Positions 1 to 2,537 of a DNA stretch of 2,537 nucleotides are shown piece after piece. The stretch comes from Escherichia coli (GTDB lineage Bacteria > Pseudomonadota > Gammaproteobacteria > Enterobacterales > Enterobacteriaceae), in the NCBI RefSeq assembly GCF_003334385.1, contig NZ_QOWN01000099.1; one strand, 5' to 3'. The notes beneath the pieces were generated by a model. It made no database searches. It was not told the origin of the DNA and saw only the letters and a list, made by a program, of their open reading frames with translations. Each line of letters opens with the position of its first letter. Positions within the stretch are counted from its first letter, which is position 1. Both the position numbers and the translations under genes were made by a program.

Positions 1-1908
1 CGGACGCTGACGCTCGACCGTGAAATCACGCTGCCATCCTCCGGTACCACGCTGATAAGCCTGGTTGACGGAAGTGGCAATCCGGTCAGCGTGGAGGTTC
101 AGTCCGTCACCGACGGCGTGAAGGTAAAAGTGAGCCGTGTTCCTGAGGGTGTTGCTGAATACAGCGTGTGGGGGCTTAAGCTGCCGACGCTGCGCCAGCG
201 CCTGTTCCGCTGCGTGAGTATCCGTGAGAACGACGACGGCACGTATGCCATCACCGCCGTGCAGCATGTGCCGGAAAAAGAGGCCATCGTGGATAACGGG
301 GCGCACTTTGACGGCGAACAGAGTGGCACGGTGAATGGTGTCACGCCGCCAGCGGTGCAGCACCTGACCGCAGAAGTCACTGCAGACAGCGGGGAATATC
401 AGGTGCTGGCGCGATGGGACACACCGAAGGTGGTGAAGGGCGTGAGCTTTATGCTTCGCCTGACCGTGGCAGCGGACGACGGCAGTGAGCGGCTGGTCAG
501 CACGGCCCGGACGACAGAAACCACATACCGCTTCAGGCAGCTGGCGCTGGGGAACTACAGGCTGACAGTCCGGGCGGTAAATGCGTGGGGGCAGCAGGGC
601 GATCCGGCATCGGTATCGTTCCGGATTGCCGCACCGGCAGCGCCTGTCACTATTGAACTGATACCGGGGTATTTTCAGATAACGGCGGTCCCGAAACTGG
701 CTGTATATGACCCGACGGTGCAGTTTGAGTTCTGGTTCTCGGAAAAGCAAATTATTGATATCAGGCAGGTTGAAACCAGCGCGCGTTATCTTGGTACGGC
801 GCTGTACTGGATAGCCGCCAGTAGCAATATTAAGCCGGGTTATGATTATTACTTTTATATCCGCAGTGTGAACACCGTTGGCAAATCGGCATTCGTGGAG
901 GCTGTCGGTCGGGCGAGCGATGATGCGGAAGGTTACCTGGATTTTTTCAAAGACAAGATAACCGAATCTCATCTCGGCAAGGAGTTGCTGGAAAAAGTCG
1001 ACCTGACGGAGGATAACGCCAGCAGACTGGATGAGTTTTCGAAAGAGTGGAAGGACGCTAACGATAAATGGAATGCCATGTGGGGCGTCAAAATTGAGCA
1101 GACCAAAGACGGCAAACATTATGTCGCGGGTATTGGCCTCAGCATGGAGGACACGGAGGAAGGCAAGCTGAGCCAGTTTCTGGTTGCCGCTAACCGTATC
1201 GCGTTTATTGACCCGACAAACGGGAATGAAACGCCGATGTTTGTGGCGCAGGGCAATCAGATATTCATGAACGACGTGTTCCTGAAGCGCCTGACGGCCC
1301 CCACCATTACCAGCGGTGGCAGTCCTCCGGTATTTTCCCTGACATCAGACGGAAAGCTGACCGCTAAAAATGCGGATATCAGTGGCAGTGTGAATGCGAA
1401 CGCCGGGACGCTCAACAATGTCACGGTAAATGAAAACTGTACGATTAAGGGCATGCTGGAGGCGACTCAGGTCAGAGGTGACTTCGTTAAAGCTGTATCC
1501 AAATCATTTCCGAAACAGGCTGGTACGTGGGGTAATACGGAAACACCAAACGGGACGGTTACAGTCACCATCAGCGATGATCATAACTTTGACCGTCAAA
1601 TCATTATTCCGCCCATTATCTTTAACGGAATAGCGTATAGCGATCCGGGAAGTGGTAATAACCCGGGAGGTACAAGATACACGGGGTATGGTTTTGAAGT
1701 TCGCAAAAACGGTGTATTAATCGCATCCAGAGAAACTAAAGGGGCCATTCCCGGTAGCTACAGTGCGGTTATTGATATGCCGAGTGGCAGGGGAAGCGTC
1801 ACTCTGGAGTTTAAGGTTTTCCATAAAGGCAATCAGCGGGCAGGTAATATCACCGACTGTACGGTGATTGTGACCAAAAAAGCCGCTTCCGGCATCAGTA
1901 TTCGTTGA
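1..1908 (+). CDS. J: Phage tail-tip central fibre / host-specificity protein J, C-terminal ~636 codons (5'-partial; the gene starts upstream of the window)
   Basis: Frame +1 is open from nt 1 to the TGA at 1906-1908. The GTG at 91 reported by the ORF track is internal, since the frame has no stop upstream of it. The translation contains two fibronectin-III-like beta-sandwich segments (e.g. ...[27 protein letters not shown]... and ...[23 protein letters not shown]...). It also contains a segment (...[69 protein letters not shown]...[13 protein letters not shown]...) that I recognise as characteristic of lambda-family J proteins. It ends ...[10 protein letters not shown], whereas lambda J as I recall it ends ...KKQALGISVV. 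Its position immediately upstream of lom matches lambda genome order. Confidence 0.9.
346..915 (+). other. Two tandem fibronectin type III-like (Ig-like beta-sandwich) domains within J (approx. 346-630 and 631-915)
   Basis: Each ~95-aa segment has the alternating hydrophobic beta-strand pattern with a conserved Trp/Tyr core and ends with a Pro/Ala-rich linker ([12 protein letters not shown] at the first boundary). Boundaries are approximate and read by eye from the translation. Confidence 0.45.
1459..1908 (+). other. C-terminal receptor-binding domain of J (distal tip, host-range determinant); allele appears divergent from lambda
   Basis: In lambda-family J proteins the last ~150 aa form the receptor-binding domain. 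Here this segment (...[149 protein letters not shown]) keeps recognisable anchor motifs (DDHxFDRQI, IDMPxGRG, GIS at the terminus) but differs at most other positions from my recollection of lambda J. Hand-counted GC is ~46% in 1501-1620, against ~62% in 1-120. Confidence 0.5.
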
Positions 1909-1929
1909 AATTGTTATAACCCATATAAG

Positions 1930-1956
1930 GGCACCAGAAATGGTGCCTTTTTTATT
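1930..1956 (+). terminator. Rho-independent (intrinsic) terminator downstream of J
   Basis: Perfect 7-bp inverted repeat GGCACCA (1930-1936) / TGGTGCC (1941-1947) with a GAAA tetraloop (1937-1940), followed immediately by TTTTTTATT (1948-1956). It lies 22 nt after the J stop codon. Confidence 0.6.
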
Positions 1957-1966
1957 GCAGAAAAGC

Positions 1967-1972
1967 GAGAGG
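1967..1972 (+). promoter_or_regulatory. Shine-Dalgarno / ribosome-binding site for lom
   Basis: GAGAGG at 1967-1972, 5 nt upstream of the ATG at 1978; purine-rich and appropriately spaced. Confidence 0.6.
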
Positions 1973-1977
1973 TAATT

Positions 1978-2049
1978 ATGCGTAAACTTTATGCCGCCAT
2001 TTTTTCCGCAGCCATTTGTCTGGCCGTATCCGGTGCGCCTGCATGGGCA
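1978..2049 (+). other. Sec signal peptide of Lom (24 aa, predicted cleavage AWA|SE)
   Basis: N-terminal basic residues (MRK), a hydrophobic core ([14 protein letters not shown]) and an A-x-A signal-peptidase I site (PAWA) before the mature sequence SEHQ. Confidence 0.75.
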
Positions 2050-2537
2050 TCTGAACATCAGTCCACGCTGAGCGCGGGGTATCTTCATGCCTCGACGAAC
2101 GTTCCCGGCAGCGATGATCTGAACGGGATTAACGTGAAATACCGTTATGAGTTTACGGACACACTGGGGCTGGTGACGTCATTCAGCTATGCAGGAGACA
2201 AGAATCGCCAGCTTACCCGTTACAGCGATACCCGCTGGCATGAAGATTCCGTGCGTAACCGCTGGTTCAGCGTGATGGTGGGGCCGTCTGTGCGCGTGAA
2301 TGAATGGTTCAGCGCGTATGCGATGGCGGGTGTGGCTTACAGCCGTATTTCGACTTTCTCCGGGGATTATCTCCGCGTAACTGACAACAAGGGGAAAACG
2401 CACGATGTGCTGACCGGAAGTGATGACGGTCGCCACAGCAACACGTCTCTGGCGTGGGGAGCTGGCGTGCAGTTTAACCCGACCGAATCCGTGGCCATTG
2501 ATATTGCTTATGAAGGCTCCGGCAGTGGTGACTGGCG
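1978..2537 (+). CDS. lom: Lom outer-membrane protein (Ail/Lom/OmpX/PagC family 8-stranded beta-barrel), 3'-partial; runs off the window edge
   Basis: ATG at 1978 preceded by the SD. Hand translation gives [186 protein letters not shown]..., which matches my recollection of bacteriophage lambda Lom almost residue for residue. No stop occurs before the window end, which is why the ORF track omits it. The position directly after J is as in lambda. Confidence 0.92.

Follow-up and report, generated by a model that had tools for sequence, protein, structure and literature searches.

The lom gene has been known since 1979, and the allele described here is itself already known: existing annotations cover it for phages 434 and Perceval, for many Stx phages and for the majority of complete Escherichia coli genomes, and in E. 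coli genomes this 199-aa allele is far commoner than the lambda allele. Its nearest counterparts, Lom of 434 (UMO75287.1) and Perceval (CAH1234817.1), have 98–99% identity to it over mature residues 25–186, belong to the same 199-aa class, and share its position between J and stf, the upstream hairpin, the Shine-Dalgarno sequence and the downstream terminator. The differences are few substitutions, e.g. F9 in the signal peptide and V119/I124, and the last 13 codons, which our stretch of DNA lacks. Lom of phage lambda (NP_040601.1, 206 aa; PDB 9wso chain C) occupies the same slot and is of the same family and fold; its last ~40 residues are near-identical, and the terminator after lom and the start of stf are identical to those of the relatives of our allele. 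Its overall identity, however, is 42% (tblastn) to 46% (blastp, mature part), with 30% in the predicted extracellular parts but 60% in those facing the membrane and periplasm, and its loop 1 is longer by 7–8 residues. Lambda J binds LamB, whereas the 434-type J of our locus has a different receptor-binding domain (47% identity).

More distant members of the family, Ail of Yersinia (3qra), OmpX of E. coli (1qj8/1qj9) and PagC/Rck of Salmonella, have the same 8-stranded barrel with protruding extracellular strands, at ~29–31% identity to Lom and sequence E-values of 1e-16 to 6e-14. Unlike these, Lom is phage-borne beside tail genes and longer (175 mature residues vs ~148–156). Cor, known from HK022, phi80 and N15, is an outer-membrane protein that blocks FhuA, its phage's own receptor. 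This superinfection exclusion protein is encoded downstream of J in HK022, which parallels lambda Lom with LamB; it is, however, unrelated to Lom, small (77 aa by coordinates) and not a beta-barrel, and the amount made from a prophage suffices for its exclusion, whereas Lom had to be overexpressed.

The window analysed here, a stretch of 2537 bases, spans the boundary between two genes of a lambda-like E. coli prophage. Compared over its whole length, the DNA shows 99.2% identity with a prophage of E. coli SCU-104, against 96.9% for phage Perceval and 94.6% for phage 434; of 5426 complete E. coli genomes, 4942 contain some window-like match, the J fragment included. An Rfam scan of the window returned no RNA family, and PADLOC returned no match. 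The features discussed below, all on the plus strand, are as follows.

1..1908, +: 3' part of J (central tail fibre / host-specificity), last 635 codons and the TGA stop at 1906–1908
1400..1905, +: C-terminal receptor-binding region of J, 434 type, beginning where the block diverging from lambda starts
1927..1953, +: intrinsic terminator after J, hairpin AAGGGCACCA-GAAA-TGGTGCCTTT at 1927–1950 and T-run to 1953
1967..1973, +: Shine-Dalgarno sequence of lom, GAGAGGT, 4 nt before the ATG, annotated as ribosome-binding site in phage 434
1978..2049, +: lom codons 1–24, Sec signal peptide, predicted cleavage after AWA, mature start SEHQ
2050..2537, +: lom codons 25–186, predicted mature 8-stranded beta-barrel; the window ends 13 codons before the stop
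2086..2121, +: lom codons 37–48, predicted extracellular loop 1 and flanks, variability 0.41, the most variable among alleles after the signal peptide
2191..2223, +: lom codons 72–82, outer end of strand 3 to loop 2, with two main variants, the 10-residue form of the window and NAEDEQKTHY

The first reading frame is open from base 1 and extends beyond the window on the 5' side, with its first in-frame start at 91. It matches PHROG 2148 and 31 ('central tail fiber J') and is annotated as gpJ in relatives. Over its last 200 amino acids it matches Perceval and SCU-104 at 100% identity, phage 434 at 96% and lambda at 47%, and the nearest solved structure to the receptor-binding region is 9wca ('A8 gpJ'). 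A spacer of 69 nt separates J from the second frame, lom, which opens with the ATG at 1978–1980 and runs for 186 codons without a stop, the last complete one at 2535. Records of relatives name this frame Lom or 'Ail/Lom family outer membrane beta-barrel protein', and its amino-acid identity to the annotated Lom of Perceval and phage 434 is 98%.

Matches at the levels of Pfam, PHROG, PDB sequence and fold agreed on a gene for an outer-membrane protein of the Ail/Lom/OmpX family, as the earlier note on this DNA had proposed. The product matched Ail_Lom (PF06316, E=6.9e-110) with query residues 1–186 on model positions 1–186 of 199, and PHROG 108 'Lom outer membrane protein' (E=1.4e-99); among PDB sequences lambda Lom ranked first (9wso chain C, E=2e-39), with OmpX and Ail next. 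Scores against the NCBIfam equivalogs were far under the cut-offs, with 98.5 bits vs 258 for NF011777 ('resistance to complement killing') and 88.5 bits vs 176 for NF006917 (OmpX), and judged by these scores Lom is therefore a relative, not an orthologue, of PagC/Rck or OmpX. The Lom proteins of the closest relatives are all 199 aa long, end in RTDGFIVGVGYKF* and have their stop 40 nt beyond the position of the window end; the length of ~206 aa anticipated previously belongs to the lambda allele, which is 42–46% identical. From these relatives, the window gene is expected to continue as ...CGCACTGACGGTTTCATCGTGGGTGTCGGTTATAAATTCTGA, followed by the terminator GCCCGCCGG…CGGGC-T6 and the start of stf. 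In identity and anatomy, positions 1978–2537 almost certainly encode residues 1–186 of a 199-residue Lom of the phage 434 type.

The signal peptide with its A-x-A cleavage site was assigned by inspection of 24 residues; residue 3 of mature OmpX aligns with residue 29 of Lom, and the OmpX mature N-terminus corresponds to about residues 27–29. An AF2 model of Lom was built from a 21-sequence alignment, with the last 13 residues taken from relatives (pLDDT 84.8, pTM 0.70). It has a helix at 2–18, a low-confidence or disordered linker at 19–25 and eight strands (29–40, 47–58, 63–81, 86–106, 111–135, 141–166, 172–183 and 186–198), and its top Foldseek matches were Ail (3qra, E=2e-15) and OmpX (1qj9), with E-values of 2e-15 to 1e-14. 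The mature protein is thus predicted to be an 8-stranded antiparallel Ail/OmpX-like barrel in the outer membrane. Full-length relatives carry a C-terminal beta-signal with a final aromatic residue (…GYKF) that is invariant in the alignment and lies beyond the window. With a signal peptide and a predicted 8-stranded barrel, lom is strongly predicted to be an accessory gene of the prophage and not part of the virion, in agreement with what had been suggested before.

Both elements previously described ahead of lom are present in the spacer, a terminator and a Shine-Dalgarno sequence belonging to lom itself. The terminator hairpin has 10 pairs closed by a GAAA loop, and a terminator is annotated at the same place in phage 434. 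Folding of 1905–1980 gave -18.5 kcal/mol (z = -2.87), and none of 200 shuffled sequences was as stable. A GC-rich hairpin with a T-run was present in 15 of 16 distinct spacer versions from relatives; in an alignment of 14 spacer variants pairing holds in 98.2% of cells, compensatory changes (GC to AU, CG to UA) are seen at three stem pairs, and the covariation score is 0.280 vs 0.127 in shuffles, with 0/500 shuffles reaching 0.280. By this comparison the hairpin is therefore a conserved, selected structure and not a product of chance. Lambda has a hairpin of other sequence in the same place, and conservation between lambda and the 434 type starts at the T-run. The 14-nt stretch before the ATG, AGCGAGAGGTAATT, which includes GAGAGGT, is identical in 79 of 80 related loci, and the Shine-Dalgarno sequence is conserved in lambda as well. 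Downstream of lom, the terminator motif GCCCGCCGG…CGGGC followed by T6 occurs ~30 nt past the stop in 74 of 79 loci, and a terminator is annotated there in phage 434, at a site beyond the window.

The earlier note had placed lom at the end of the tail operon, which does not hold for the long-tailed relatives: stf follows lom in every one with enough downstream DNA, and tfa follows stf where the DNA extends further. The order lom, second terminator and, ~60 nt later, stf is found in Perceval, 434, SCU-104, lambda and long-tailed prophage loci. Lom lies between J and stf in lambda, 434, Perceval and prophages, and HK97 has stf directly after J, without lom. By gene order, lom is an insert within the tail block, between J and stf, bracketed by two predicted intrinsic terminators. 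In HK022 cor lies downstream of J, ~1 kb after the J stop, and is annotated both as moron and as superinfection exclusion protein. Short-tailed Stx phages carry a distant Lom (~38% identity) two genes after the tail fibre gene of an unrelated tail module. The proposal that lom is a moron, taken in the sense of Juhala and Hendrix, holds for its presence or absence, as in HK97, and for the downstream terminator in relatives, but not for a distinct base composition: GC compared along the window revealed no island at lom (0.55–0.57 in lom, 0.46–0.53 in the adjoining 3' region of J and 0.61–0.65 in the 5' part of J).

Selection on the gene was assessed in 80 IMG/VR loci with a Lom at least 95% identical to the window allele. 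All 80 have the ATG and an intact 199-aa frame, and pooled dN/dS against the window is 0.22 (74 distinct sequences). On this comparative evidence lom is functional and maintained by selection. Alternatively, it could be a passenger that no longer does anything, left to decay in prophages that are mostly defective. Many E. coli copies do belong to cryptic prophages, a tail gene of the SCU-104 prophage is interrupted by an internal stop, one IMG/VR locus (L076) has an IS element just upstream of lom, and lambda lom is dispensable for laboratory growth. Against such decay stand the intact frames in all 80 relatives, the dN/dS of 0.22, the Shine-Dalgarno sequence invariant in 79 of 80 and the compensatory changes that keep the flanking hairpin, and we regard this explanation as barely credible. 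The L076 locus was also considered as a new left junction of the lom unit and rejected, as only an IS transposase gene is inserted upstream of the Shine-Dalgarno sequence.

Variation among alleles bears on whether Lom and the neighbouring J form a matched pair, each Lom allele masking the receptor of the adjoining J and both moving as one host-range cassette. Past about base 1400, identity of the window DNA to lambda drops from 91–100% to 43–68%, and the divergent block extends to about 2490, covering the J receptor-binding domain, the spacer and three quarters of lom between flanks that are again 91–100% identical to lambda. The block looks like a single host-range cassette, and in an initial set of five J types the signal peptide and loop 1 did differ from one type to the next. 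The presence of lambda Lom with LamB in 9wso and the location of cor downstream of J in HK022 would also suit such pairing. In the 80 loci, however, the window allele with identical loop 1 was found behind at least four types of J receptor-binding domain with 50–65% mutual identity, distributed as follows.

434 type: 31 loci
L012 (O157 prophage) type: 18 loci
L010 type: 4 loci
type 76–80% identical to L010: 21 loci
J not within the locus: 5 loci
IS-disrupted (L076): 1 locus

This distribution largely refutes the pairing; because the same allele stands behind at least four J types, a lock-and-key relation between Lom and the neighbouring J is unsupported unless these J types share a receptor. 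Loop 2 variants are likewise uncoupled from J type, since L010 and L019 have the same J receptor-binding domain and different loop 2 forms, and the residual association weakens with distance from J, as plain linkage predicts. Some alleles (P0072, P0106) have a long lambda-like loop 1. We consider the matched pair highly unlikely. Either the window allele targets something common to the four J-type phages, or its function is not tied to its neighbour's receptor.

Expression of lom independent of the late genes, as formerly assumed, is not visible in the sequence. A consensus scan found no sigma-70-like site in 1700–2537, the maximum of a PWM promoter scan of the whole window (8.8) was under the median shuffled maximum (9.2), and the same scan of the lambda spacer gave nothing above shuffled sequence. 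Only ~13 nt lie between the T-run of the J terminator and the Shine-Dalgarno sequence. Two candidates, TGtTATAAC (1912–1920) and TATAAG (1924–1929), were rejected, as they have no usable -35 and no final T; a start at either would transcribe the entire terminator hairpin, and the stretch is absent from lambda. A weak, activator-dependent or alternative-sigma promoter of lom could still be present. It is established lambda biology that Q-antiterminated late transcription ignores the J terminator. On this basis, and because a rise of Lom late in infection is reported for lambda, the main transcription of lom would be the Q-antiterminated late transcript passing the J terminator, with a low, condition-dependent level in lysogens from an unmapped start.

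A lysogenic-conversion virulence factor would behave differently: Lom would be expressed independently of the late genes, confer adhesion, invasion or serum resistance, and benefit the lysogen in an animal host. The family is common to Ail, PagC and OmpX, and lom is widespread in E. coli including pathogens and under purifying selection; yet the scores of Lom far under the virulence equivalog cut-offs and the absence of a detectable promoter in the scans speak against this role. Reports on lambda lom in lysogens conflict. It is reported as expressed in PMC7067206, which lists it among the few lambda genes active in lysogens, and in PMC12366544, both citing Liu 2013, whereas an array study found it undetected there and described its promoter as little known (PMC2147009). 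For phage phi24B, similar lom expression was reported in stable lysogens and induced cells (PMC3342100). In lambda, lom expression climbs strongly in the late phase of infection (PMC12366544), hardly what one would expect of a gene serving the lysogen only. The adhesion role attributed to lambda Lom in the earlier note goes back to one report from 1997, as cited in PMC3594210, PMC7067206 and PMC12366544, that lambda lom raises adhesion of K-12 to human buccal cells (Vica Pacheco 1997); the report stands for the lambda allele, which is 42–46% identical to ours, but newer evidence concerns blocked phage adsorption instead (PMC12366544, 9wso). A role as adhesin also leaves unexplained why, in two unrelated tail modules, lom constantly neighbours receptor-binding tail genes. 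Altogether we judge the virulence reading unlikely, though it ranks second, behind receptor masking.

The newer evidence comes from lambda. Overexpressed lambda Lom gave strong defence against lambda-vir and none against T7 (PMC12366544 / PMC11888456), OmpX had no phage-defence phenotype where Lom gave one, and the authors proposed that Lom keeps phages from adsorbing unproductively to cells already infected (PMC12366544). Lambda lysogens were not resistant to lambda-vir and the defence required overexpression (PMC12366544); the level of Lom made from a prophage would therefore be too low to exclude. PDB entry 9wso includes chains of lambda Lom and of maltoporin/LamB, the LamB sequence being the same as in the J-LamB complex 8xcj, and a sequence search with J found no J chain in 9wso. 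Read from its chain composition only, the entry would represent a solved Lom–LamB complex.

We therefore tentatively prefer receptor masking over adhesion as the mechanism of the window allele, by analogy with lambda and with confidence falling a little short of even. Lom would bind an outer-membrane porin that serves lambda-like phages as receptor, so that fewer sibling phages are wasted by adsorption to already infected or lysogenic cells. Such a role fits the location of cor downstream of J in HK022, the distant Lom shortly after the tail fibre gene in short-tailed Stx phages, and the low identity between this allele and lambda Lom in the predicted outward-facing parts. OmpC is the receptor of phage 434, and it would be the obvious candidate partner of the window allele. 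Receptor masking and adhesion or virulence are compatible and not mutually exclusive, and host-cell adhesion may be an additional effect. Taken as a whole, this explanation is in our estimate evenly balanced between right and wrong, a grading that reflects the mechanism. A more speculative extension, which we consider rather improbable, is that lambda-like phages have a general 'receptor-shield' position shortly after J, occupied by lom in LamB/OmpC phages and by cor in FhuA phages. The 199-aa allele would then cover a porin such as OmpC and, since several different J domains precede it, could be a broad shield that works against a whole group of lambdoid phages and not just its own.

The textbook picture of a virulence or adhesion moron with its own promoter is thus weaker than commonly presented, with the promoter invisible, the lysogen data conflicting and newer evidence linking lambda Lom to LamB. 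If the 199-aa allele does shield a porin receptor, the virulence-factor label that lom carries in Stx phages and pathogenic E. coli would have to be reconsidered, and if the broad shield is true, the abundance of lom in E. coli, including pathogens, would mirror competition among phages and not virulence.

Across the J–lom region, identity of the window to lambda is 91–100% up to approximately position 1400, except for one 100-nt bin (601–700) at 80%, falls to 43–68% between 1400 and 2490, a span that takes in the C-terminal domain of J, the spacer and the greater part of lom, and is back at 97% in the last ~40 nt. A single divergent block, flanked on both sides by sequence homologous to lambda, holds both the J receptor-binding domain and lom; this block matches the classical h434 host-range region. 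The 100-nt stretch at 601–700 has 79–80% identity to Perceval, 434, and lambda and 100% to the SCU-104 prophage, and the G+C content drops at the same place from 0.61–0.65 to approximately 0.47–0.53. From its sequence, this stretch looks like a small mosaic patch within J.

Structures related to both products of the divergent block are present in the PDB. Entry 9wso contains lambda Lom and maltoporin together, while 9wca and 9wcb are designated 'A8 gpJ 713'. The J C-terminal domain of the window is nearer to 'A8 gpJ 713' (E = 5e-55) than to lambda J (E = 4e-47). Our literature search recovered no paper for 9wso or for 9wca/9wcb.

Two features were considered in and around the spacer between J and lom:
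1914–1922, motif TTATAACCC, between the J stop codon and the hairpin
1717–2088, minus strand, antisense ORF of 123 aa, covering the J end, the spacer, and the lom start
The motif is retained in nearly all non-lambda spacer variants, across differing J types, with two variants reading TTAACCC; it is absent from lambda. The motif looks like a −10 box with TG in front, yet no −35 element accompanies it, and transcription starting there would include the entire terminator. The antisense ORF was unsupported by every search and is most likely spurious.

The position occupied by lom differs among other phages. HK022 (L008, 6739–6972) carries the superinfection-exclusion gene cor ~1 kb 3' of J, whereas in HK97 (L007, 7032–7240) the slot is empty and stf directly follows J after a spacer of ~200 nt. 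The short-tailed Stx phages VT2-Sakai (L005, 4734–5468) and PhiR5_2 (L006, 5007–5738) encode a distant, longer Lom (243–244 aa, ~38% identity), which lies 3' of the tail fibre gene, separated from it by two small genes, in a tail module unrelated to that of lambda. In one IMG/VR prophage (L076, 907–2445 and 2446–2500), an IS transposase (PHROG 688) has inserted directly 5' of the lom Shine–Dalgarno sequence, in place of the J end and terminator, and lom is still intact at 199 aa. The closest relative of the window, the SCU-104 prophage (L003), has a tail gene (2089–2418), between the tape-measure gene and the gene for minor tail protein L, that is interrupted by an internal stop and carries a pseudogene annotation. 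This prophage may be defective despite its intact J, lom, stf, and tfa.

Mosaicism was also found within Lom itself. Alleles of 207 aa (P0072, P0076, and P0106; loci L009–L011, L019, and L020) combine a long, lambda-like loop 1 (VHPGGVPALSGTG…) with a remaining body of the 199-aa type. Loop 2 occurs in two forms, that of the window and NAEDEQKTHY, and which of them an allele carries is independent of its loop 1 and of the J type.
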